A DNA stretch of 64,000 nt from Mobula hypostoma (taxonomy: Eukaryota), in the NCBI RefSeq assembly GCF_963921235.1, contig NC_086108.1, positions 10,540,001 to 10,604,000 on the forward strand, written 5' to 3'. The translations under genes and the position numbers were made by a program. How positions within the stretch are numbered: the stretch's first letter is position 1; the number at the start of each line of letters is the position of its first letter. The notes beneath the pieces were generated by a model that saw only the letters and a program-made list of their open reading frames with translations, did no database searches and was not told the DNA's origin. Of this stretch, positions 9,572 to 64,000 are shown in pieces.

Positions 9572-11125
9572 AATGGTCTGCATCCTAGAGTGCTTAAGGA
9601 AGTAGCCCAAGAAATAGTGGATGCATTAGTGAAAATTTTTCAAAACTCGTTAGATTCGGGACTAGTTCCTGAGGATTGGAGGGTGGCTAATGTAACCCCA
9701 CTTTTTAAAAAAGGAGGGAGAGTGAAACCGGGGAATTATAGACCGTCGGCCTAACGTCGGTGGTGGGGAAACTGCTGGAGTCAGTTATCAAGGATGTGAT
9801 AACAGCACATTTGGAAAGCGGTGAAATGGTCGGACAAAGTCAGCATGGATTTGTGAAAGGAAAATCATGTCTGACGAATCTCATAGAATTTTTTGAGGAT
9901 GTAACTAGTAGAGTGGATAGGGGAGAACCAGTGGATGTGGTATATTTGGATTTTCAAAAGGCTTTTGACAAGGTCCCACACTGGAGATTAGTGTGCAAAC
10001 TTAAAGCACACGGTATTGGGGGTAAGGTACTGGTGTGGTTGGAGAATTGGTTAGCAGACAGGAAGCAAAGAGTGGGAATAAACGGGACCTTTTCAGAATG
10101 GCAGGCGGTGACTAGTGGGGTACCGCAAGGCTCAGTGCTGGGACCCCAGTTGTTTACAATATATATTAATGACTTGGATGAGGGAATTAAATGCAGCATC
10201 TCCAAGTTTGCGGATGACACGAAGCTGGGTGGCAGTGTTAGCAGTGAGGAGGATGCTAAGAGGATGCAGGGTGACTTGGATAGGTTGGATGAGTGGGCAA
10301 ATTCATGGCAGATGCAATTTAATATGGATAAATGTGAAGTTATCCACTTTGGTGGCAAAAATAGGAAAACAGATTATTATCTGAATGGTGGCCGATTAGG
10401 AAAAGGGGAGGTGCAACGAGACCTGGGTGTCATTATACACCAGTCATTGAAAGTGGGCATGCAGGTACAGCAGGCGGTGAAAAAGGCGAATGGTATGCTG
10501 GCATTTATAGCAAGAGGATTCGAGTACAGGAGCAGGGAGGTACTACTGCAGTTGTACAAGGCCTTGGTGAGACCACACCTGGAGTATTGTGTGCAGTTTT
10601 GGTCCCCTAATCTGAGGAAAGACATCTTTGCCATAGAGGGGGTACAAAGAAGGTTCACCAGATTGATTCCTGGGATGGCAGGACTTTCATATGAAGAAAG
10701 ACTGGATGAACTGGGCTTGTACTCGTTGGAATTTAGAAGATTGAGGGGGGATCTGATTGAAACGTATGAGATCCTAAAGGGATTGGACAGGCTAGATGCA
10801 GGAAGATTGTTCCCGATGTTGGGGAAGTCCAGAACGAGGGGTCACAGTTTGAGGATAGAGGGGAAGCCTTTTAGGACCGAGATTAGGAAAAACTTCTTCA
10901 GACAGAGAGTGGTGAATCTGTGGAATTCTCTGCCACAGGAAACTGTTGAGGCCAGTTCATTGGCTATGTTTAAGAGGGAGTTAGATATGGCCCTTGTGGC
11001 TACAGGGGTCAGGGGGTATGGAGGGAAGGCTGGGGCGGGGTTCTGAGTTGGATGATCAGCCATGATCATAATAAATGGCGGTGCAGGCTTGAAGGGCCGA
11101 ATGGCCTACTCCTGCGCCTATTTTC
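9572..11125 (+). mobile_element. 5'-truncated young CR1 LINE (same subfamily as 46063-49994)
   Basis: Near-identical to the 3' ~1.55 kb of the intact element; ends in (TTTCTATG)n tail at ~11102-11125. Confidence 0.95.
9760..11046 (+). pseudogene. CR1 ORF2 reverse transcriptase, truncated (428 aa open)
   Basis: RT motifs YLDFQKAFDKV, SGVPQGSVLGP, KFADD; no endonuclease; small frame-disrupting lesion near 9745. Confidence 0.9.
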
Positions 11126-14169: not shown

Positions 14170-17100
14170 ACGGCCTGCCTTTGAAAAAGCCATGCTGACT
14201 ATTCCTAATCATATTATGCCTCTCCAAATGTTCATAAATCCTGCCTCTCAGGATCTTTTCCATCAACTTACCAACCACTGAAGTAAGACTCACCTGTCTA
14301 TAATATCCTGGGCTATCTCTACTCCCTTTCTTGAATAAGGGAACAACATCTGCAACCCTCTAATCCTCCAGAGCCTCCCCCGTCCCCATTGATCATTGCC
14401 AGAGGCTCAGCAATCTCCTCCCTCGCCTCCCACAATAGCCTGGGAATCATATTCTCTGGTCCCAGAGACTTATCCAACTTGATGCTTTCCGAAAGCTCCA
14501 GCACATCCCCTTTCTTAATGTCTACATGCTCAAGCTTTTCAGTCTGCTGTAAGTCATCCCTACAATTGCCAAGATCCTTTTCCATAGTGAACACTGAAGC
14601 AAATTATTCATTAAGTACCTCAGCTATCTCCTCCAGTTCCATACACGCTTTTCCACTGTCACACTCAATTGGTCCAATTCTCTCACGTCTTATCCTTTTG
14701 CTCTTCAATTACTTGTAGAATGCCTTGGGGTTTTCTTTAATCCTGTTCGCCAAGGCCTTCTCATGGCCCCTTCTGGCTCTCCTAATTTCATTCTTAATCT
14801 CCATCCTGCTAGCCTTATAATCTTCTAGATCTCTATCATTATCTAGTTTTTTGAACCTTTTGTAATCTTTTCTTTTCTTCCTCACTAGATTTACAACAAC
14901 CTTTGTACACCATGGTTCCTGTACCCTACCATCCTTTCCCTGTCTTATTGGAACGTACCTATGCAGACTGCCACACTAATATCCAGATTTCTACCGTACA
15001 TTTCCCTGAGAACACCTGTTCCCAATTTCTGGTTTCAAGTTCCTGCCTGATAGCTTCATATTTCCCCTTAATCCAATTAAACGCTTTCCTAACTCATCTG
15101 TTCCTGTACCTCTCCAGTGCTATGGTAAAGGAAATAGAATTGTGATCACTATCCCCAAAATGCTCTCCTACTGAAAGACCTGACACCTGACCAGGTTCAT
15201 TTCCCAATACCAGATCAAGTACAGCCTCTTCTCTTGTAGGCTTATCTATATAATGTGTCAGGAAACCTTCTTGAGCACACCTAACCAACTCCACCCCATC
15301 TAAACCCCTTGCTCTAGGAAGATGCTAATCAATATTTGGGGAATTAACATCTCCCACCACAACAACCCTGTTATCATTTCACCTTTTCAGAATCTGTCTC
15401 CCTATCTGCTCCTCAATGTCCCTGTTACTATTGTGTGGTCTATAAAAAACACCCAGTAGAGTTATTGACCTCTTCCTGTTTCTAACTTGCACCCACAGAA
15501 ACTCGGTAGACAATCCCTCCATGACTTCCTCCTTTTTTGTAGCTGTGACACTATCTCTGATCAGCAGTGCCACGCCTCCACCTCTTTTACCTCCCTCCCT
15601 CCCTGTCCTTCCTGAAACATCTAAAGCCTGGCACTCTAAGTAACCATTCCTGCCCCTGAGCCATCCAAGTCTCTGTAATGGCCACAACATCACAGCTCCA
15701 AGTACTGATCCACGCTCTAAGCTCATCTGCTTTGTTCATGATGTTTCTTGCACTAAAATAGACACATCTCAAACCATTGGTCTGAGCGTATCCCTTCTCT
15801 ATCACCTGCCTATCCTCCCTCTCGCACTGTCTCCAAGCTTTCTCTGTATGTGAGCTAACCACCCCTTCCTCTGTCTCTTCAGTTCAGTTCCAACTCCCAG
15901 CAATTCTCGTTTAAACTCTCCTTAATAGCCTCCTTAATAATTTTCAAACGATTGTGGAACGAAGTCTAGAAAAAAAAAGACATTTACATGTGCTTCCTGG
16001 ATTACGAACAAGCTTTTGACTGAGTCAATCATGAACAGCTGGTCAATTGCCTGAACTCACTGGGGCTGGATGGGAAAGATGTTCGACTGATTGCGAGTCT
16101 GTACTGGCATCAGAAGGCAGTAATAAGAACTAGTGGTGGAAATTCACTGGAAGTTGAGATCCAAAAAGGGGTTCGCTAGGGCTGCATTATCTCCCCTTTA
16201 TTATTTAACCTTTACTCAGAGGTAATCTTCAGGGTGTTGAACGATGAAGCTGGTGTCCAAATTGGTGGAGTGACGGTGAACAACTTGAGGTATGCAGATA
16301 ATTCAGTGTTGTTAGCTGAGACTGGGGATGAGTTACTCAGAATAGTAGATAAGATAAATGCTGAAGGTGAATGATTTGGAATGAAAATAAATACTGCAAA
16401 GACGAAGATGATGATAGTATCACGGAAGAAAGAAGTCCCCAAAATCAGTAGCAAAATTAACGGCATAGGTATAGAGAAAGTCAAGAAGTTTGTGTACTTG
16501 GGACAGATGGTCAAAGAGGATGGGAAATGTGATACAGAAATTAGATGAAGAATTGAGATTGCAAGATCAACGTTCTGGAGCCTGAGTGACGTGCTGTGTG
16601 GCAAGAGGTTGGACTTTGGGCTGCGATGGAGAATTTGGAAATGCTACGCCTGGAGCAGTCTGTTGTATGGTGTCGAATTGTGGAGCTTATGCAAGGAAGC
16701 GCAACGACGACTGGAGGCATTTGAAATGTGGTGTTTAAGGAGAATGCAGAAAATCAGATGGGTGATGAAGGTCAGTAATATGGAAGTGTTGAAGAGAGTG
16801 AGGGGAGAAAAGGAGTTGCTGAAGAATGTGCAGAAAAGGAAGCCGGAATATGCCGGGCACTTGTTAAGAGGTGGTGGACTGCAGAATTGTTATTGGAAGG
16901 GACGATAGGAGGAAAGAGGGAAAGAGGAAAGCAGCGAACGACTTGATACGATAATGTGAGGCAATGGACTGAGTTGAGTTATGCTGAGGCCAGAAAAAGA
17001 GCGCAAAATCGAAGAAAATGAAGGTGCATAGCCGCCAGCCACGGATTCAGGACGGCACCCACTGACTGACAGAATAGCCTGAGCAAATCTCCTTGCCAGG

Positions 17101-17975
17101 ATATTGGTCCACCTCAGATTCAAGTACAACCCGTCCTTTTTGTACAGGTCACGCCTGCCCCAAAGGAGGCCCCAGTGATCCAGAAATCTGAATCCCTGCC
17201 CCCTGCTCCGTTCCCTCAGCCACACATTTAACCCCCACCTCACTCTATTCCTATACTGTTGTGTGGCATAGGCAGTAATCCCGAGATTACTTTATTTGAG
17301 GTCCTGCTTCTCAACTTCTTTCCTAACTCTCTGTAGTCTGTTTTCAGGATCTCCTCCCTTTTCCTACTTATGTCATTGTTACCAATATGTACCATGACCT
17401 CTGGCTGTTCACCTTCCCACTTCAGGATATCGTGGACGCGATCAGAAACATCCCGGACCCTGGCCCCTAGAGGCAAACTACCATCCACGTCTCTTTCCTG
17501 CGTCCACAGAACTGCCTGTCTAACCCCCTAACTATAGAGTCCCCTATCACTGCTGCCTTCCTCCTTTCCCTACCCTTCTGAACCACAGAACCAGACTCTA
17601 TGCCAGAGACGCGGCCACTGTTGCTTCACCTACCAACAGTACTCAAACAGGAGTACTTATTGTTAAGGGAGACAGCCACAGGGGCACCCTCTAGTATCTG
17701 ACTCTTGCCCTTCCCTCTCCTGACTGTTACCCGCTTGTCTGACTCCCGAGGCCCCTGTGTGACTACTTGCCTATAGCTCCTCTCTATCACCTCCACACTT
17801 TCCCTGACCAGATGAAGGTCATCGAGCTGCATCTCCAGTTCCCTAACCCGGTCCCTAAGGAGCTGCAGCTCGACGCACCTGGTGCAGATGTGGTCGTCCG
17901 GGAGGCTGGGAGTCTCCCAGACATACCACATCCGACACCCTGTACAGAGCACCAGCCTCAGACATACTTCCTAAC
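14170..17975 (-). mobile_element. Decayed CR1 LINE (ORF1, endonuclease and start of RT), 3' part missing, split by an RTE insertion
   Basis: ORF1 pieces CTGCRMW..HICTRCVELQLLRDRVRELE, VHIGNNDI, FLDHW..DGL; ORF2 pieces CVYFSARNIMNKADEL, AITETW, FYRP, SDHN; many stops and frameshifts. Confidence 0.9.
15932..17072 (+). mobile_element. RTE-clade LINE, 5'-truncated, decayed RT
   Basis: CFLDYEQAFD, KGVR*GCIISPLLFNLYSE, NNLRYAD, FVYLG, LLYGVELWSL..RLEAFEMWCLRRM; TSD AATAGCCT at 15924-15931 and 17073-17080. Confidence 0.9.
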
Positions 17976-23544: not shown

Positions 23545-24590
23545 GACCATAAGACAGAGGAGCAGGATTAGGCCATTCATCTCATCGAGCCGACTCTACC
23601 ATTGATTTATTATCCCTCTCAATCCTCTCTTGCCGTCTCCCTGAAACATTTGACACCCTTACTAATCAAGAGCCTATCAACCTCCACATTAAATATATTC
23701 AATAACCTGGCCTCCACAGGCTTCTGTGGCAATGTATTCTACAGATTCATCACCCTCTGGCTAAAGGAATTCTTCCTCATTTCTGTTCTAAATGGACATC
23801 CCTCTATTCTGAGGCTGTGCCTCCCCGCCCCGTCCAAGAATCTGTCATTATCGGAACTATTGTCTCCATTGTCACTCTGTCCAGGCCTTTCAATATTAGA
23901 TCGGTTTCAATGAGATCCCCCCTCATTCTTCTGAACTCTAGTGAATACAGCCCCAGAGCCATCAAACGCTCCTTATACATTAACCTTTTCATTCCTGGAA
24001 TCATCCTTGTGAATGTCCTCTGGACCGTCTCCAACGCCAGCATATATTTTCTAAGATAAGGGGCCCAAAACTGCTCACAATACTCCAAGTGAGGCCTCAC
24101 CAACGTATTATAAAACTTCAGCTTTACATCCTTGCTTTTATATTCTAGTCCTCTTGAAATGAATGCTGACATTGCATCTGCCTTCCTCACCGCTGACTCA
24201 ACCTGCAAGTTCACTTGGGGAATCCAACACAAGAACTCCTAAGTCCCTTTGCACCTCTGACTTCTGAATTTTCTTCCCGGTTAGAAAATAATCTACGCCT
24301 TTATTCCTTCTACAATATTGCATGACCATACATTTCCCTGCACTCTATTCCATCTGCCACTTCTTTGCCTACTCTCCTAATTTGTCTAAGTCCTTCTGCA
24401 GACTCCCTGCTTCCTCAACACTACCTACCCCTCTGCCTACCTTCGTATCATCCACAAACGTGGCCACAAAGCCACCAATCCCGCCATCCAAATCATTGAC
24501 ATATAACGTGAAAAGAAGTGGTCCCTCTACCGACCCCTGCAGACCACCGTTAGTCACCAGCAGCTAACCGGAAAAGGCCCCCTGTATGCT
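23545..24590 (-). mobile_element. CR1 3' fragment (~1 kb, decayed RT)
   Basis: LQGSVEGPLLFTLYVNDLD..FVDD; LVRPHLEYCEQFWAPYLRK; (TCTTATGG)-like tail. Confidence 0.9.
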
Positions 24591-37782: not shown

Positions 37783-38370
37783 CCATAAGAGCATATGATA
37801 TAAGAGCAGAATTAGGCCAGTTGGGCCACCAAGTCTGTTCCATCATTTCATCATGCCTCATCCGTTTTCCCTCTCAGCCCAATATTCCCCAGTCTCCTGC
37901 TTTCTCCCCATAATCCCTTCATGCCCTGACTAATCAAGAATCTATCAACCTCTGCCTTAAATATATCCAATGATTTGGCCTCCACCGCTGCCTGTGGCAA
38001 CAAATTCCACAGATTCACCGCTCTCTGGCTAAAAAACTTCCTCCTCATCTCCATTCTGAAAGGACGCCTCTCTGTTCTGAGACTGTGTCCTCTGGTCTTA
38101 GACTTGCCCACTCTATTCAGGCCTTTCAACATTCAATAGGCTTCAATGAGATTCCCTCTCATTCTTCAAAATCCTGGTGAGTAGAGGCCCAGAGCCATCA
38201 ATTGCTCCTCATATGACAAGCCTTTCAATCCCGGGATCTTTCACCTCCTTTGAACCCTCTCCAATGTCAGCACGACCTTTCTAAGATAAGGGCGCAAACC
38301 TACTCACAATACTCCATGTGAGGCCTCACCAGTGTTTTATAAAGCCTCGACATTACATCCTTGCTTTTTT
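37783..38370 (-). mobile_element. CR1 3' fragment
   Basis: KTRGHSLRTERRPFRMEMRRKFFSQRAVNLWNLLP. Confidence 0.8.
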
Positions 38371-45255: not shown

Positions 45256-46160
45256 GCGGGACCATCGCAGCAGGAGGAGGAGCGAGGGGCTCGGGAGATC
45301 GCTGAGTGCCGGGAAGCAGCTGAGGAGCTGAGGTGAGTGTGCTTTAAAAGGAGCGTGGAGGGCAACTGAAGGGTTAAGCAGAGTGTTGATTAGAGGGAGT
45401 GAGTACTTGAGATAATTGGCAAGGACAAATAAAAGGAGGGGTAACTAAAGAGGAGCGGCCAGCGTGCGAGTGGCTCAGGGTAGGAGTGGAGTTTTGAGGC
45501 TTTGACTCGAGAGGCTTCGGCGAGCAGAGGCTGAGGACGAGCCTGCTCCCAGTGAGGTCAGGCCGGGTAAGTTTCTTTAATTAATTAAATTAACTTAGGA
45601 GTAGGTAATGGAGGCAGCAGTTAGGGCAGTCGAGTGCTCCGTTTGCAGTAGGTGGGGAGTCAGGGCGAGTACAATTGTCCCTGATGACTACACCTGTGAA
45701 AGGTGCATCCAGCCGCAGCTCCTGACAAACCGAGTTAGGGAACTGGAGCTGGAGCTGGATGGACTTCAGATCATTTGGGAGTCAGAGGCAGAAATAGACA
45801 GGAATTACAGGGAGATAGTCGTCCCTAAGAGTCAAGAAGCAGGCAGCTGGGTGACTGTCAGGTGAGGGAACGGGAATAGACAGAATGAGCAGAGCACCCC
45901 AGTGGCCGTTCGCATCAATAATAAGTATACCATTTTGGATACTGTTGGTGGGGACAACCTACCAGGGACAAGTTGCAGTGGTCACTTCTCTGGCACCGAG
46001 ACTGGACCCTCAGCTCAGAAGGGAAGGAGGGAAAAGAGGAGAGCAGTAGTGATAGGGGATTCATAGAAACATAGAAACATAGAAAATAGGTGCAGGAGTA
46101 GGCCATTCGGCCCTTCGAGCCTGCACCGCCATTTATTATGATCATGGCTGATCATCCAAC

Positions 46161-49100
46161 TCAGAACCCCGCCCCAGCCTTCCCTCCATACCCCCTGACC
46201 CCTGTAGCCACAAGGGCCATATCTAACTCCCTCTTAAACATAGCCAATGAACTGGCCTCAACAGTTTCCTGTGGCAGAGAATTCCACAGAGTCACCACTC
46301 TCTGTGTGAAGAAGTTTTTCCTAATCTCGGTCCTAAAAGGCTTCCCCTCTATCCTCAAACTGTGGCCCCTCGTTCTGGACTTCCCCAACATCGGGAACAA
46401 TCTTCCTGCATCTAGCCTGTCCAATCCCTTTAGGATTTTATACGTTTCAATCAGATCCCCCCTCAATCTTCTAAATTCCAATGAGTACAAGCCCAGTTCA
46501 TCCACTCTTTCTTCATATGAAAGTCCTGCCATCCCAGGAATCAATCTGGTGAACCTTCTTTGTACTCCCTCTAAGGCAAGGATGGCTTTCCTCAGATTAG
46601 GGGACCAAAACTGCACACAATACTCCAAGTGTGATCTCACCAAGGCCTTGTACAACTGCAGTAGTACCTCCCTGCTCCTGTACTCGAATCCTCTCCCTAT
46701 AAATGCCAGCATACCATTCGCCTTTTTCACCGCCTGCTGTATCTGCATGCCCACTTTCAATGACTGGTGTATAATGACACCCAGGTCTCGTTGCACCTCC
46801 CCTTTTCCTAATCGGCCACCATTCAGATAATAATCTGTTTTCCTATTTTTGCCACCAAAGTGGATAACTTCACATTTATCCACATTAAATTGCATCTGCC
46901 ATGAATTTGCCCACTCACCCAACCTATCCAAGTCACCCTGCATCCTCTTAGCATACTCCTCACAGCTAACACTGCCACCCAGCTTCGTGTCATCCGCAAA
47001 CTTGGAGATGCTGCATTTAATTCCCTCATCCAAGTCATTAATATATATTGTAAACAACTGGGGTCCCAGCACTGAGCCTTGCGGTACCCCACTAGTCACC
47101 GCCTGCCATTCTGAAAAGGTCCCGTTTATTCCCACTCTTTGCTTCCTGTCTGCTAACCAATTCTCCACCCACACCAATACCTTACCCCCAATACCGTGTG
47201 CTTTAAGTTTGCACACTAATCTCCTGTGTGGGACCTTGTCAAAAGCCTTTTGAAAATCCAAATATACCACATCCACTGGTTCTCCCTTATCCACTCTACT
47301 AGTTACATCCTCAAAAAATTCTATGAGATTCATCAGACATGATTTTCCTTTCACAAATCCATGCTGACTTTGTCCGATCATTTCACCGCTTTCCAAATGT
47401 GCTGTTATCACATCCTTGATAACTGACTCCAGCAGTTTCCCCACCACTGACGTTAGGCTAACTGGTCTATTATTCCCTGGTTTCTCTCTCCCTCCTTTTT
47501 TAAAAAGTGGGGTTACATTAGCCACCCTCCAATCCTCAGGAACTAGTCCAGAATCTAACGAGTTTTGAAAAATTATCACTAATGCGTCCACTATTTCTTG
47601 GGCTACTTCCTTAAGCACTCTAGGATGCAGACCATCTGGCCCTGGGGATTTATCTGCCTTCAATCCCTTCAATTTACCTAACACCACTTCCCTACTAACA
47701 TGTATTTCGCTCAGTTCCTCCATCTCACTGGACCCTCTGTTCCTTACTATTTCTGGAAGATTATTTATGTCCTCCTTAGTGAAGACAGAACCAAAGTAAT
47801 TATTCAATTGGTCTGCCATGTCCTTGCTCCCCATAATCAATTCACCTGTTTCTGTCTGCAGGGGACCTACATTTGTCTTTACCAGTCTTTTCCTTTTTAC
47901 ATATCTATAAAAGCTTTTACAGTCCGTTTTTATGTTCCCTGCCAGTTTTCTCTCATAATCTTTTTTCCTCTTCCTAATTAAGCCCTTTGTCTTCCTCTGC
48001 TGAACTCTGAATTTCTCCCAGTCCTCAGGTGAGCCACTTTCTCTGGCTAATTTGTATGCTACTTCTTTGGAATTGATACTATCCCTAATCTCTCTTGTCA
48101 GCCACGGGTGCACTACCTTCCTTGATTTATTCTTTTGCCAAACTGGGATGAACAATTGTTGTAGTTCATCCATGCAACCCTTAAATGCTTGCCATTGCAT
48201 ATCCACCGTCAATCCTTGAAGTGTCATTTGCCAGTCTATCTTAGCTAATTCACGTCTCATACCTTCAAAGTTACCCCTCTTTAAGTTCAGAACCTTTGTT
48301 TCTGAATTAACTATGTCACTCTCCATCTTAATGAAGAATTCCACCATATTATGGTCACTCTTACCCAAGGGGCCTCTCACGACAAGATCGCTAATTAACC
48401 CTTCCTCATTGCTCAAAACCCAGTCCAGAATAGCCTGCTCTCTAGTTGGTTCCTCGACATGTTGGTTCAAAAAACCATCCCGCATACATTCCAAGAAATC
48501 CTCTTCCTCAGCACCTTTACCAATTTGGTTCACCCAATCTACATGTAGATTGAAGTCACCCATTATAACTGCTGTTCCTTTATTGCACACATTTCTAATT
48601 TCCTGTTTAATACCATCTCTGACCTCACTACTACTGTTAGGTGGCCTGTACACAACTCCCACCAGCGTCTTCTGCCCCTTAGTGTTACGCAGCTCTACCC
48701 ATATCAATTCCACATCTTCCCGGCTTATGTCCTTCCTTTCTATTGCGTTAATCTCTTCTTTAACCAGCAACGCCACCCCACCTCCCCTTCCTTCATGTCT
48801 ATCCCTCCTGAATATTGAATATCCCTGAATGTTGAGCTCCCATCCCTGGTCACCCTGGAGCCATGTCTCTGTGATCCCAACTATATCATAATCATTAATA
48901 ACAATCTGCACTTTCAATTCATCCACCTTATTACGAATGCTCCTTGCATTGACACACAAAGCCTTCAGGCACTCTTTTACAACTCTCTTAGTCCTTATAC
49001 AATTATGCTGAAAAGTGGCCCTTTTTAATGCTTGCCCTGGATTTGTCAGCCTGCCACTTTTACTTTTCTCCTTTGTACTTTTTGCTTCTACCCTCACTTT

Positions 49101-49193
49101 ACACCCCTCTGTCTCTCTGCACTGGTTCCCATCCCCCTGTTGTGAACTAACCTCCTCTCGCCTAGCCTCTTTAATTTGATTCCCACCCCCCAA
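46161..49193 (-). CDS. CR1 ORF2: AP-endonuclease + reverse transcriptase (1010 codons open; annotated start is TTG, not ATG)
   Basis: EN motifs CVNARS, GITETW, VYRPP, MGDFN, SDHN; RT motifs YLDFQKAFDKV, GVPQGSVLGP, FADD. Confidence 0.95.
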   Translation of the reverse strand: MGGGNQIKEARREEVSSQQGDGNQCRETEGCKVRVEAKSTKEKSKSGRLTNPGQALKRATFQHNCIRTKRVVKECLKALCVNARSIRNKVDELKVQIVINDYDIVGITETWLQGDQGWELNIQGYSIFRRDRHEGRGGGVALLVKEEINAIERKDISREDVELIWVELRNTKGQKTLVGVVYRPPNSSSEVRDGIKQEIRNVCNKGTAVIMGDFNLHVDWVNQIGKGAEEEDFLECMRDGFLNQHVEEPTREQAILDWVLSNEEGLISDLVVRGPLGKSDHNMVEFFIKMESDIVNSETKVLNLKRGNFEGMRRELAKIDWQMTLQGLTVDMQWQAFKGCMDELQQLFIPVWQKNKSRKVVHPWLTREIRDSINSKEVAYKLARESGSPEDWEKFRVQQRKTKGLIRKRKKDYERKLAGNIKTDCKSFYRYVKRKRLVKTNVGPLQTETGELIMGSKDMADQLNNYFGSVFTKEDINNLPEIVRNRGSSEMEELSEIHVSREVVLGKLKGLKADKSPGPDGLHPRVLKEVAQEIVDALVIIFQNSLDSGLVPEDWRVANVTPLFKKGGREKPGNNRPVSLTSVVGKLLESVIKDVITAHLESGEMIGQSQHGFVKGKSCLMNLIEFFEDVTSRVDKGEPVDVVYLDFQKAFDKVPHRRLVCKLKAHGIGGKVLVWVENWLADRKQRVGINGTFSEWQAVTSGVPQGSVLGPQLFTIYINDLDEGIKCSISKFADDTKLGGSVSCEEYAKRMQGDLDRLGEWANSWQMQFNVDKCEVIHFGGKNRKTDYYLNGGRLGKGEVQRDLGVIIHQSLKVGMQIQQAVKKANGMLAFIGRGFEYRSREVLLQLYKALVRSHLEYCVQFWSPNLRKAILALEGVQRRFTRLIPGMAGLSYEERVDELGLYSLEFRRLRGDLIETYKILKGLDRLDAGRLFPMLGKSRTRGHSLRIEGKPFRTEIRKNFFTQRVVTLWNSLPQETVEASSLAMFKRELDMALVATGVRGYGGKAGAGF

Positions 49194-49198
49194 CCATT

Positions 49199-49994
49199 CT
49201 AGTTTAAAGTCACCTCAGTAGCCCCCGCTAATCTCCCTGCCAGGATATTGGTCCCCCTAGGATTCAAGTGTAACCCGTCCTTTTTGTACAGGTCATGCCT
49301 GCACCAAAAGAGGTCCCAATGATCCAAAAACTTGAATCCCTGCCCCCTGCTCCAATCCCTCAGCCACGCATTTATCCTCCACCTCATCGCATTCCTACTC
49401 TCACTGTCACGTAGCACAGGCAGTAATCCCGAGATTACTACCTTTGCGGTCCTTTTTCTCAACTCCCTTCCCAGCTCCCCATATTCTCCCTTCAGGACCT
49501 CATCCCTTTTCCTACCTATGTCATTGGTACCTATATGTACCACGACCTCTGGCTCCTCACCCTCCCACTTCAGGATATCTTGGACACGATCAGAAATATC
49601 CCGGACCCTGGCACCAGGGAGGCAAACTACCATCCGGGTCTCTGGACTGCATCCACAGAATCGCCTATCTGACCCCCTTACTATCGAGTCCCCTATCACA
49701 ACTGCCCTCCTCTTCCTTGCCCTACCCTTCTGAGTTACAGGGCCGGACTCTGTGCCAGAGGCACGGCCACTGTCGCTTCCCCCGGGTAAGCTGTCCCCTC
49801 CAACAGTACTCAAACAGGAGTACCTGTTGTTAAGGGGCACAGCCACCGGGGTACTCCCTATTACCTGACTCTTCCCCTTCCCCCTCCTAACCGTGACCCA
49901 CTTGTCTGCCTCCCGTGGCCCCGGCGTGACCACCTGCCTGCAACTCCTCTCTATCATCTCTTCACTCTCCCTGACCAGACAAAGGTCATCGAGC
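49199..49994 (-). CDS. CR1 ORF1, 5'-truncated, SGNH-esterase-like domain
   Basis: VVIGDSIVRG, CLPGA, VHIGTNDI, DGLHLN; zinc-finger N-terminus is missing. Confidence 0.85.
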
Positions 49995-50488
49995 TAGGGG
50001 GATTCGATAGTTAAGGGGATAGATAAGAGGTTCTGTGGAAGAGATCGAGAATCCCGGATGGTCTGTTGCCTCCCTGGTGCCAAGGTCCGCGATATCTCGG
50101 ATCGAGTTCTCAGTATTCTCAAGAGGGAGGGTGAGCAGCTGGATGTTGTGGTCCTTGTAGGGACCAATGACACAGATAGGAAGGAGGAGGAGGTCCTGCA
50201 AAGAGAGTTTAGGGAGTTAGGTGCAAAGTTGAAGGACTGGACCTCCAGGGTTGCAATCTCAGGATTGCTACCCGTGCCACGTGCTAGTGAGGCTAGAAAT
50301 AGGAAGATTATGCAGCTAAATACATGGCTAAGGAGATGGTGCAGGAGGGAGGGCTTCATGTTTATGGACAATTGGGCTTTGTTCCAGGGAAGGTGGGACC
50401 TGTTCCGACGGGACGGTCTGCACCTGAACTGGAGGGGGACTAACGTCCTTGCGGGTAGATTTGCTAGTGCTACTCTGGGGGGTTTAAA

Positions 50489-53420
50489 CTAGATTTGCAG
50501 GGGGAGGGGAACCAGAGTGTTAGAGCAGGTAGTGAGGTGAAGGAGGATAAAGGTCATGCCAGGACTGCATGTATGCTCAGTAATCAAAGGTTTGTACATG
50601 ATAGAAATGTTCTCAGGTGCACCTATTTCAATGCAAGGAGTATTGTGGGTAAGGCAGATGATCTTAGGGCATAGATTGGCATCTGGGATTATGACATTAT
50701 TGCTATTAGCGAGACTTGGTTGCAGGAGGGGCAGGAATGGCAGCTTAATGTTCTGGGGTTCTGTTGGTTCAGACGTGACAGAGGAGGAGGGATGAAAGGG
50801 GGCGGAGTGGCATTACTAGTCAGGGAAAAATATCACAGCTGCACATAGACAGGACAGCCCGGAGGGCTTGTCTACAGAGGCCATATGGATGGAGCTGAGG
50901 AATGGGAAAGGTGTGACCACACTAATAGGGTTGTATTATAGACCGCCCAATAGTCAGAGAGAACTGGAGGAGCAAATCGTTAGAGAGATAGCAGACCGAT
51001 ATAAGAAACAGAAAGTTGTAATAGTAGGGGATTATAACTTTCCACATATTGACTGGGACTCCCACACGGTGAAACGGCTAGATGGCTTGGAGTTTGTCTA
51101 ATGTGTTCAGGAAAGTTTTCTAATTCAATATATAGAGGTACCTACGAGAGAGGATGCAATACTTGATCTCCTATTAGGGAACCAGACTGGTCAGGTGACA
51201 GAAGTATGTGTAGGCGACCATTTTGGGTCCAGTGACCATAATGTCATTAGTTTCAAGTTAATTATGGATAAGAATATGTCTGGTCCTCAAGTTCTAAATT
51301 GGAGAAGGGCCAATTTTGTGGAAATGAGGAAGGATCTAGGAAGAGTGGATTGGGACAAGTTGTTTTCTGGCAAGGATGTGTTCAGTAAGCGGAAGGCCTT
51401 CAAAGGCGAAATTTTGAGAGTGCAGAGTTTGCATGTTCCTGCCAGGATTAAAGGCAAAGTTAATAGGCATAGGAAATCTTGGTTTTCAAGGGATATTGGC
51501 GATCTGGTTAAGAAAAAGAGAGAGGTGTATAGCAGGTATAGGCAACTAAGAACAAATGAGGTACTTGAAGAGTATAGGAAATGTAGGAAAATACTAAAGA
51601 AGGAAATCAGGAAGGCAAAAAGAAGACATGAGGTTGCTTTGGCAGATAATGTGAAGGTAAACCCGAAGGGTTTCTACAAGTATATTAAGAGTAAAAAGAT
51701 AGTAAGGGACAAAATTGGTCCTTTAGAAGATCAGAGTGGTCGTCTATGTGTGGAGCTTCACAAGATGGGGAAGATCTTAAACAGTTTTTTTGCATCAGTA
51801 TTTACTCTGGAAACTGGCATAGCGTATATGGAAGGAAGGGAAACAAACAGTAGTGTCATGGAACATATAGAGATTAAAGAGGAGGAGGTGCTTGTTGCCT
51901 TATAGTGAATAAAGGTAGATAAATCCTCCGGGCCTGACATGATATTTCCTTGGACCTTGAGAGAGACTAGTGCAGAAATTGTAGGGGCCCTGGCAGGAAT
52001 ATCTAAAATGTCCTTAGCCACGGGTGCAGTGCCGAAGGATTGGAGGGTAGCACATGTTGTTCCGTTGTTTAAAAAAGGCTCCAAAAGTAAACCAGGTAAT
52101 TACAGGCCGGTGAGCCTGACATCAGTAGTAGGTAAATTATTGGATAGTTTTCTGAGAGATTGGATAGACAAGTATTTGGACAGCCAAGGGCTGATTAAAG
52201 ATAGTCAGCATGGCTTTGTACATGGTAGATCATGTTTAATGAATCTTGTAGAGTTTTTCGAGGAGGTTACCAAGAAAGTAGATGAAGGAAAGGCTGTGAA
52301 TGTTGTCTACATGGACTTTAGTAAGGCCTTTGACAAGGTCCCACATGGGAGGTTAGTTCAGAAGGTTCAGACACTAGGTATCCATGGAAAGGCGGTAAAC
52401 TGGATTCAAAATTGGCTGTGTGGGAGAAGACAGAGAGTGGTAGTGGATGATTGCTTCTCAGACTGGAGGCCTGTGACTAGTGGTGTACCTCAGGGATCTG
52501 TGCTGGGACCATTGTTGTTTGTTGTCTATATCAATGATCTAGATGATAATGTGGTAAATTGGATCAGCAAGTTTGCTGATGACACTATGACTGGAGGCGT
52601 TGTGGACAGCGAGGAAGGCTTTCAAAGCTTGCAGAGGGATCTGGACCAACTGGAAAAATGGGCCAGAAAATGGCAGATGGAATTTAGTGCAGACAAGTGT
52701 GAGGTGTTGCAGTTTGGAAGGACAAATCAAGGTAGGACTTGCACAGTAAATGGTAGGGCACTGAGGAGTGTGGAGGAACAAAGGGATCTGGGGGTTCAGA
52801 TACATAATTACCTGAAAGTGGCGTCACAGGTAGACAAGGTTGTAAAGAAGGCTTTTGTCATCCTGGCATTCATAAATCAAAGTATTGAGTATAGGAGTTG
52901 GGATGTTATGGTGAGGTTGTATAAAACATTGGTGAGGCCAACTTTGGAGTATTGTGTGCAGTTCTGGTCACCTAATTATAGGAAGGATATCAGTAAGATT
53001 GAAAGAGTGCAGAGAAGATTTACTAGGATGTTGCCGGGTCTTCAGGAGTTGAGTTACAGGGAAAAATTGAACAGGTTAGGCCTTTATTCCTTGGAGCGTA
53101 GAAGAATAAGGGGGGATTTGATAGAGGTTTACAAAATTATGAGGGGTATAGACAGAGTAAATGCGAGTAGGCTCTTTCCACTTAGATTAGGAGAGATAAA
53201 TATGAGAGGACATGGCTTAAGGGTGAAGGGGGAAAGGTTTAGGGGGAACATTAGGGGGAACTTCTTCACTCAGAGAGTGGTGGGAGTGTGGAATGAGCTG
53301 CCATTTGACTGGTAATTGCGGGCTTACTCTTAAGTTTTAAGAATAAATTGGATAGGTACATGGATGGGAGAGGTCTGGAGGGTTATGGACTGGATGCAGG
53401 TCAATGGGACTAGTGGGATA
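50489..53420 (+). pseudogene. CR1 ORF2 (EN+RT), disrupted by stops and frameshifts; longest open piece 51939-53315
   Basis: YFNARSIVGK, YYRPPN, VGDYNFP, SDHN, YMDFSKAFDKV, PQGSVLGP, FADD. Confidence 0.92.
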
Positions 53421-63924: not shown

Positions 63925-64000
63925 AAACATAGAAACATAGAAAATAGGTGCAGGAGTAGGCCATTCGGCCCTTCGAGCCTGCACCGCCATTTATTATGAT
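63925..64000 (-). mobile_element. 3' end of another young CR1 copy, running off the window
   Basis: Matches 46067-46142 (CATAGAAACATAGAAAATAGGTGCAGGAGTAGGCC...). Confidence 0.92.

Follow-up and report, generated by a model that had tools for sequence, protein, structure and literature searches.

The window analysed here, a 64,000-nt stretch of the Mobula hypostoma genome (contig NC_086108.1, positions 10,540,001 to 10,604,000 of the forward strand), contains on its minus strand a copy of a long interspersed element (LINE) with two open reading frames (ORFs): ORF1, of the SGNH/GDSL esterase type, and ORF2, which codes for an endonuclease (EN) and a reverse transcriptase (RT). Judged from its EN and RT domains, its esterase-type ORF1, its homology to avian CR1 and the 8-nt repeats at its 3′ end, the site where the two frames meet is the ORF1/ORF2 junction of a CR1-clade LINE. 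The junction carries a cassette composed of a slippery heptamer, T_TTA_AAC, the ORF1 stop codon that abuts it, 7 nt of variable sequence and a GGGGG core. This cassette is conserved across the CR1 clade, and it has been selected and does not result from chance. An initial annotation of the window, made from its letters alone, had proposed that ORF2 is expressed by programmed −1 ribosomal frameshifting (PRF) at the heptamer, and we examine below how this proposal and its rivals account for the conserved cassette. The features of the window copy, in the order in which the element is read, are the following:

49199..49993, minus strand: ORF1 remnant of the SGNH/GDSL esterase type, 264 codons from stop to stop (PF13472, 7.6e-16)
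49215..49217, minus strand: TGA closing the −1 (ORF2) frame upstream, two codons 5′ of the heptamer
49202..49208, minus strand: slippery heptamer T_TTA_AAC, in X_XXY_YYZ phase relative to ORF1
49199..49201, minus strand: ORF1 stop TAG, directly 3′ of the heptamer (TAG, TAA or TGA at this place in other lineages)
49192..49198, minus strand: 7-nt spacer AATGGTT, constant in length, with a sequence that differs among lineages
49182..49191, minus strand: G tract GGGGGGTGGG, whose core GGGGG is at +17..+21 from the first T of the heptamer
46161..49214, minus strand: ORF2 frame, 1017 codons, two of which precede the heptamer (stop at 46161-46163), encoding EN and RT
46062..46160, minus strand: 3′ untranslated region (UTR), ending in three TTCTATGT-like 8-nt units at ~46062-46085 (by eye), which mark the 3′ end of the element

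The ORF2 product matches the Pfam families PF03372 (6.6e-12, residues 101-288), PF14529 and PF00078 (6e-32, residues 575-792). ORF1 is 93% identical to a 311-aa Mobula hypostoma protein (P0001), and when compared with this full-length protein it is 5′-truncated, ~47 N-terminal residues being absent; the window copy is therefore dead and can do no more than represent its family. The N-terminal Cys-rich part of P0001 gave no Pfam family. Homology to other copies extends to 46100, the end of the query used. Relative to avian-type loci from metagenome contigs (L004, L008 and L009), identity is 32-36% for ORF1 and 35-46% for ORF2. The esterase type is described as the only identifiable ORF1 type in recovered vertebrate CR1 and L2 lineages (PMC13343379), and an ‘octamer microsatellite motif’ is mentioned for amniote CR1 (PMC4316615).

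On the minus strand, ORF1 ends in ..GCT ACT GAG GTG ACT TTA AAC TAG, and the heptamer at 49208-49202 lies in X_XXY_YYZ phase directly before the stop, exactly as the initial annotation had read it. Its account of how the two ORFs overlap also holds: they share 13 nt of sense codons, or 16 nt with the stop included, and the heptamer lies within them. Given the TGA at 49215-49217, any shift is confined to this 13-nt interval. The −1 frame closed by this TGA does encode EN and RT as annotated, with a counted length of 1017 codons in place of the 1010 first given. Likewise, the first in-frame ATG is found at 48563, deep inside the endonuclease as claimed, since it falls within the Pfam EN match; its position is codon 218 of the stop-to-stop frame, or 216 from the heptamer, and not ~211. 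The ATG at 49197 had been correctly assigned to the third frame, where it opens 8 codons only (MVGGWESN*), and the G-rich tract pointed out downstream is present, in a register that is fixed across lineages.

When written as TTTAAAC-TRR-N7-GGGGG, the cassette has two occurrences in the window, one at 49187-49208 (minus strand) and one at 50483-50504 (plus strand), both of which are CR1 ORF1/ORF2 junctions:

50483..50504, plus strand: second cassette, GGT TTA AAC TAG ATTTGCA GGGGG, in a diverged CR1 copy (subfamily B, 71% nucleotide identity)

The heptamer alone might have been taken for a chance co-occurrence in one decayed copy, as the window contains 18 copies of TTTAAAC where shuffles lead one to expect 8.2. 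The full cassette, in contrast, did not occur in any of 100 dinucleotide-preserving shuffles of the window, and it recurs across lineages whose ORF1 proteins are ~30% identical; chance is thereby refuted. A third copy in the window (17826-17075, 81% identical) is uninformative at this place, since its homology stops just short of the junction. In contigs of two DNA runs and of one run guessed to be RNA, no variable place was observed at 49167-49224 among the 40 listed of 91, and no insertion or deletion was listed at the junction. This is a weak indication, the sequences being contigs and a similar gap being present at 49333-49387; contigs of the run guessed to be RNA displayed no consistent joint or indel.

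Family searches against the 3.48-Gb Mobula hypostoma genome that contains the window gave the following junctions:

Subfamily A (the window family): ACT TTA AAC TAG AATGGTT GGGGGG; in-phase heptamer in 29 of 29 further copies, heptamer with immediate stop in 29 of 29
Subfamily B: GGT TTA AAC TAG ATTTGCA GGGGG; in-phase heptamer in 17 of 19 copies, heptamer with immediate stop in 16 of 19
Subfamily C (old, decayed): GCT TTA AAC TAA ATAGTA GGGGGG; in-phase heptamer in 10 of 20 copies, heptamer with immediate stop in 9 of 20
Subfamily D: GGT TTA AAC TAA TTTGGCA GGGGG; in-phase heptamer in 7 of 8 copies, heptamer with immediate stop in 8 of 8

Family A is young and abundant: of the 2029 first-look candidates for its junction region, 40 gave scored matches at 99-100% identity. 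The heptamer is kept in only half of the decayed subfamily C copies, which indicates that the motif is not a mutational cold spot. Dead C copies mutate at the motif like other DNA, and its constancy among lineages is thus due to selection on active elements. In subfamilies B and D, the heptamer is embedded in GTTTAAAC, an 8-nt palindrome (window 50482-50489 for subfamily B), so that pattern searches match both strands.

Scanning the ORF1 alignment over metagenome contigs yielded 35 loci with an ORF1 that is 26-50% identical to that of the window over the best segment. The 3′ end of ORF1 is contained in 15 of these loci, and 7 more are cut by the contig end. TTTAAAC is found in 12 of the 15, in phase in 9, and an immediate stop in 11; GGGGG is in register in all 12 heptamer-bearing loci, and the ORF1 of the 9 that keep the heptamer in phase, directly before a stop, is only 26-36% identical to the window's. 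The exceptional loci are visibly decayed, with the motif either out of frame or point-mutated. Both ORFs are represented in 11 loci: ORF2 lies in the −1 frame in 7 of them, shares the frame of ORF1 in 1 and is shifted to +1 in 2 that are decayed; L035 matched ORF2 only. L003, L004, L008, L009 and L013 belong to the avian CR1 group, the L004 ORF1 being 80% identical to a Lagopus protein and having hundreds of bird relatives. Note that these lineages are related by descent, and that the junction counts are not independent events.

We compared nine lineage representatives anchored on the heptamer without gaps. The sole columns without variation among all nine are the heptamer TTTAAAC, the first two letters (TA) of the stop and the GGGGG core at +17..+21; mean pairwise nucleotide identity falls from 0.89 in the core to 0.40 on its upstream side and 0.34 on its downstream side. 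Across the compared lineages, the Leu codon is TTA and the Asn codon AAC without exception, and the codon preceding Leu, which is ACT, GGT, GCT, TAT, CAT or TCT, has T as its third base throughout. In the four bird-type loci, synonymous variation is present in all six codons before GCT/TCT TTA AAC (GCA/GCG, GGA/GGG, CTT/CTC, ATA/ATT, GAG/GAA/GAT and AGG/AGA), and none is present within the heptamer. A comparison of CR1 junctions for conservation of the heptamer, synonymous positions included, was the check that the initial annotation had put forward, and its outcome is favourable: T_TTA_AAC with a stop directly behind it is kept in phase in all four subfamilies of the ray and in 9 of the metagenome loci that contain the ORF1 3′ end (15 in all).

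The G tract is read as xxG GGG Gxx in the ORF2 frame. Its Gly codon is GGG in 12 of 12 aligned sequences, and the codon before it ends in G in 12 of 12 although it encodes Leu, Gln, Arg or Lys, which shows that the G tract is constrained as RNA. A block of this kind could also be an RNA or protein signal unrelated to a change of frame, for instance a need for Leu-Asn at the C-terminus of ORF1, or a site for packaging or for the binding of ORF1p, with the G tract as part of it, ORF2 being then translated by internal entry. Conserved as nucleotides where no structure is predicted, the G tract could bind a protein of any function, and ORF1 types are described as having been swapped between lineages (PMC4120745). 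However, a need for Leu-Asn at the protein level would not fix TTA, AAC and the preceding third base, and the constant phase, the 7-nt spacing and the opening of the ORF2 frame 1-5 codons upstream of the heptamer in 8 of 12 lineage representatives indicate a translational event at the junction. We hold this explanation to be very improbable.

The junction also leaves its mark at the protein level. A profile search of 1.84 billion cluster representatives (clustered at 50% identity) gave 14,824 hits, of which the best 150 were analysed; 112 of these are complete at the C-terminus, with 68 ending in LN, 10 in GN (9 of them QGN) and 2 in KN, and Asn is the last residue in 85. The residue before LN is compatible with an NNT codon in 67 of 68. 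The LN ending is kept despite post-esterase tails of differing lengths (..RRALN, ..GKVRYLN, ..GSKHSLN), and named members of the LN type come from birds, Zootoca (lizard), Pelodiscus (turtle), Acipenser (sturgeon), Mobula, Leucoraja and sharks. Among the 68 relatives listed for the window ORF1 (ray/shark-type), 36 end in Leu-Asn, or 34 of the 38 with an intact C-terminal motif, as do 98 of the 120 listed bird-type relatives. The QGN and KN tails would fit G_GGA_AAC and A_AAA_AAC heptamers, respectively, a lead that we take from the protein tails only. An ORF1 of the QGN/KN class was not found in the ray genome, where the best hits are 44% identical and correspond to subfamily D, and DNA for this class was not found in viral contigs. 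The corresponding search of genome contigs gave bacterial SGNH hydrolases and an unrelated invertebrate-like element (L116).

This element (L116:584-4938, on the contig of a bacterial metagenome-assembled genome) is an esterase-ORF1 LINE with a 681-aa ORF1 frame from stop to stop and a Pro/Trp-rich tail. Its ORF2 lies in the −1 frame with a 154-nt overlap with ORF1, and the stop is not accompanied by TTTAAAC, so that this distant relative has a junction of another design; the DNA presumably comes from the animal host of the sample. The protein records contain other misplaced CR1 sequences. P0018, which sits on a 4159-nt contig and is filed as ‘SGNH/GDSL hydrolase family protein [Pseudomonas aeruginosa]’, is a CR1 ORF1 that is 59% identical to the window's and looks like vertebrate DNA (cartilaginous-fish type) contaminating a bacterial assembly, and the sturgeon records in the P0209 cluster carry an UNVERIFIED_CONTAM flag. 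The gene models P0024, P0048 and P0049, named ‘40S ribosomal protein S24 isoform X2’ (Pristis) and ‘transmembrane protein 204 isoforms’ (Mobula), include CR1 ORF1, probably through exonisation of the transposable element or as an annotation artefact.

Does ORF2 need an AUG of its own? In family A, the ORF2 frame is open to the locus end (545 codons) in 10 of the 30 fetched near-identical loci, the window included, and the first ATG is codon 218 in 10 of 10. The window family thus did not display an in-frame AUG ahead of the endonuclease together with free variation at the heptamer, which the initial annotation had named as one outcome that would speak against frameshifting. Its first EN motif is at codon 87, the first ATG being 216 codons past the heptamer. 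In L005, whose ORF2 is open over 963 codons counted from the heptamer, codon 45 carries the EN motif and codon 59 is the first ATG. Asn-Gln and Ala are retained at ORF2 codons 10, 11 and 15 of subfamilies A, B and D by means of synonymous codons (AAT/AAC, CAA/CAG and GCT/GCA/GCG). The open frame and the constraint on codons 10-15 imply that translation of the ORF2 frame begins at most a few codons away from the junction, where neither an AUG nor a near-cognate codon is conserved. Overall, these data show that an ORF2 AUG is dispensable, and that coding constraint in the ORF2 frame starts ~10 codons past the junction.

These data bear directly on the conventional explanation, termination-reinitiation or leaky scanning, with the closest AUG or near-cognate codon of the ORF2 frame as the start and the heptamer kept for some other reason. 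Bird-type loci have an ORF2-frame ATG 2 nt after TAG (CTAG AC ATG AGG, i.e. codon 5), L032 and L030 have an early ATG, and the codon at the bird-type ATG position is GTG in L005 and TTG in subfamily B, all of which would suit reinitiation; a precedent is offered by SART1 with its UAAUG stop-start coupling (PMC3894237). That codon is, however, TGG in the window family, D and L013, TCG in both L002 and L008, AGG in the aligned copy of C and GAC in L030. A restart AUG that overlaps the stop or lies within a few nt of it is present in L004, L009, L001, L032 and L030, and absent from the window family, D, L002, L005, L008 and L013. Moreover, two lineages with a long open ORF2 have no ATG before the endonuclease motif, ORF2 is open from the heptamer in every intact lineage, the constraint at codons 10-15 precedes the first ATG, and reinitiation leaves the in-phase heptamer and its invariant synonymous sites without explanation. 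Ordinary reinitiation at a nearby AUG may be feasible in birds, not in the ray family, and as an explanation for the junction we regard it as improbable. A 1997 paper on chicken CR1 is said, by its title, to deal with closely spaced ORFs, with which the bird-type ATG near the stop agrees.

We consider it fairly probable that the junction is instead a site of programmed −1 frameshifting at U_UUA_AAC, which would produce an ORF1p-ORF2p fusion. Ribosomes translating ORF1 would arrive at U_UUA_AAC and a fraction of them would slip back by one base: in a tandem slip, tRNA-Leu would move from UUA to UUU and tRNA-Asn from AAC to AAA, and CUA would then be read in the −1 frame. The product would be a Gag-Pol-like fusion of sequence ..T-L-N-L-E-W-L-G-G-G.., and non-slipping ribosomes would terminate at the abutting stop, releasing ORF1p. 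The first T of the heptamer would be invariant because the P-site tRNA-Leu needs it for re-pairing. As no structure is predicted downstream, the stimulator, if any, would be the adjacent stop together with the linear G tract. Both are likely modulators; the G tract, predicted to be single-stranded and starting 10 nt past the heptamer, would stand approximately at the leading edge of the ribosome while the heptamer is decoded. Work on LINE-1 indicates that very little ORF2p is required. With so low a demand, even weak stimulation of the site might be enough. A recoding review lists U_UUA_AAC among the heptamers most prone to shifting on mammalian ribosomes, and it describes stimulators located 12-15 nt 3′ of the shift site, some of them with trans-acting factors (PMC5009743).

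Several observations weigh against the frameshift-fusion reading. In all four lineages examined, the predicted folds of the 120 nt past the heptamer are no better than those of shuffled sequence (z from +0.38 to +1.79) with a folding tool that covers neither pseudoknots nor G-quadruplexes, and an Rfam scan of 48800-49400 gave nothing at E<=1. An ORF2-frame ATG lies within 5 codons of the junction in the bird-type loci L004, L009 and L001 and in L032 and L030, and in subfamily D codon 39, upstream of the EN motif, is an ATG, so that initiation or reinitiation is possible in those lineages. Finally, the stop strictly abuts the heptamer, which simple tandem slippage does not require and which hints at a termination-linked step. 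When compared with a canonical −1 site, the junction displays the heptamer phase, the −1 ORF and the conservation, and lacks the stable stem-loop or pseudoknot 5-9 nt downstream; a −1 ORF without a usable start of its own is found in the window family and in L005, not in all lineages.

Candidate downstream structures were considered and rejected. Minimum free energy folds of 110-120 nt in 12 representatives revealed neither a structure common to them nor one of unusual stability. In bird-type loci, a hairpin can be made out by eye ~25 nt downstream (CCAGGC..GCCTGG); it is absent from the ray families. As for a G-quadruplex, the tracts (G6-U-G3, G5-A-G4, G6-AA-G4) do not, by eye, offer four loop-separated runs in all lineages.

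The termination-linked step would be a −1 restart coupled to termination, in which a post-termination ribosome with deacylated tRNA-Asn re-pairs on AAA and resumes at CUA without initiator tRNA, or in which reinitiation by a 40S subunit uses one of the first few codons although it is not AUG; ORF2p would then be a separate protein. Such a restart would explain why the stop always abuts the heptamer and may be TAG, TAA or TGA, the stop as such being conserved and not a particular sequence. It would also accommodate all 85 of the 112 complete ORF1 representatives that end in Asn, including SN and EN endings that do not fit the full X_XXY_YYZ, and it would keep ORF1p and ORF2p separate, as is the rule in LINE-1. 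Skabkin is said to have found in 2013 that post-termination ribosomes migrate in vitro to nearby codons cognate to the P-site tRNA, which we count in favour of restart. However, the first T of the heptamer, invariant across six codons, is needed by tandem slippage and not by a slip of tRNA-Asn alone, and the invariant TTA for Leu is left without explanation. Much of the evidence for the fusion would also fit a termination-coupled restart, which we consider rather unlikely.

Frameshifting at the CR1 junction may be set beside known systems. The coronavirus ORF1a/1b junction (infectious bronchitis virus type) has the same heptamer in the same phase and a −1 polymerase ORF without its own start, and a fusion like the one made there would be expected for CR1. 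Viral U_UUA_AAC sites depend on a pseudoknot 5-7 nt downstream, whereas the CR1 site has no predicted stable structure, its 0-frame stop abuts the heptamer and its sole conserved 3′ element is the linear G tract from 10 nt. The −1 PRF of luteoviruses and dianthoviruses (barley yellow dwarf virus, BYDV, and red clover necrotic mosaic virus, RCNMV) shares with CR1 a stop directly after the slippery heptamer and a polymerase made, or in CR1 predicted to be made, as a frameshift fusion. The heptamers differ, however, and these viruses use adjacent structures and, for BYDV, long-distance pairing, no equivalent of which was found in CR1. Protein-stimulated PRF is known for nsp2TF of the porcine virus PRRSV, with a C-rich motif ~11 nt downstream, and for 2A of cardioviruses. 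CR1 resembles both in its short unstructured motif ~10 nt from the shift site, where a bound factor would meet the leading edge of the ribosome; it differs in that the motif is G-rich and not C-rich, the element is a cellular retrotransposon and the binding factor is only hypothetical.

Closer to LINEs, a −1 frameshift is stated for ORF2 of the Dictyostelium non-LTR (long terminal repeat) elements TRE5-A and TRE3-A (PMC5911963), which belong to another clade and host than CR1. SART1 (PMC3894237) and human LINE-1, with its AUG-independent ORF2 initiation (PMC5009743), are like CR1 in having a bicistronic LINE RNA with ORF2 just past the ORF1 stop, but they make a separate ORF2p by reinitiation and have no in-phase slippery heptamer. 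No report of −1 frameshifting for CR1 was found in full-text searches of the literature, a scope that leaves aside older subscription papers and Repbase/Dfam notes. By term search, the word ‘frameshift’ is absent from a 2013 review on non-LTR protein biogenesis (PMC3894237), from a 2026 survey of the CR1 group (PMC13343379) and from PMC4120745, PMC3905857, PMC4316615 and PMC4176376, and ‘CR1’ is absent from the first 300,000 of the 449,034 characters of a 2016 recoding review (PMC5009743).

−1 frameshifting at UUUAAAC itself is classic; for this class of element it seems unreported, and the 3′ context is atypical, with no predicted structure. There are three classic AAC-ending shift sites, U_UUA_AAC, G_GGA_AAC and A_AAA_AAC. 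A broader scenario, which we put forward tentatively as one possibility, is that CR1, which dominates among the retrotransposons of many vertebrates, has kept an unusual structure-free cassette (U_UUA_AAC, abutting stop, G5 at a fixed 10 nt) since before the split of cartilaginous and bony vertebrates, making a Gag-Pol-like fusion, with the G tract acting either by contact with the ribosome or via a trans-acting factor, be it ORF1p or a host protein that binds G tracts. In this scenario, sister lineages with ..QGN or ..KN tails may have turned to G_GGA_AAC or A_AAA_AAC, which would be a natural exchange within the three classic sites.

The window and its genome are rich in other CR1 sequences. 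At 49994-49997, two copies lie head-to-head 4 nt apart, family A on the minus strand up to 49993 and subfamily B on the plus strand from 49998, both cut within ORF1; probably one was inserted at, or truncated by, the other. Further CR1 fragments are located at 9573-11107 (plus strand; the 3′ part of the window family, 97.6% identical), 17075-17826 (minus strand), 23667-24587, 37943-38331, 52028-53303 and 63958-64000, the last being a 43-nt match of 100% identity at the end of the window. The ray genome holds at least four CR1 subfamilies, ranging from copies that are 99% identical to heavily decayed ones, and esterase-type ORF1 queries gave 64,000-104,000 first-look candidates each; CR1 appears to be a major, recently active component of the Mobula hypostoma genome.

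How the second ORF of LINEs is translated is a long-standing open question. The cassette accounts for odd gene models that read through from ORF1 into ORF2, such as P0021 of Hypanus, which reads ..REGFKLNLQGAG.., and with its ~30 nt it would be a natural example of a frameshift site without downstream RNA structure. If CR1 does shift frame at U_UUA_AAC, the ORF1p:ORF2p ratio would be fixed in cis by the RNA, and ORF2p would be covalently joined to ORF1p on delivery. The Gag-Pol strategy would then extend from retroviruses and LTR elements to the transposon family that is most abundant in birds, reptiles and cartilaginous fishes.

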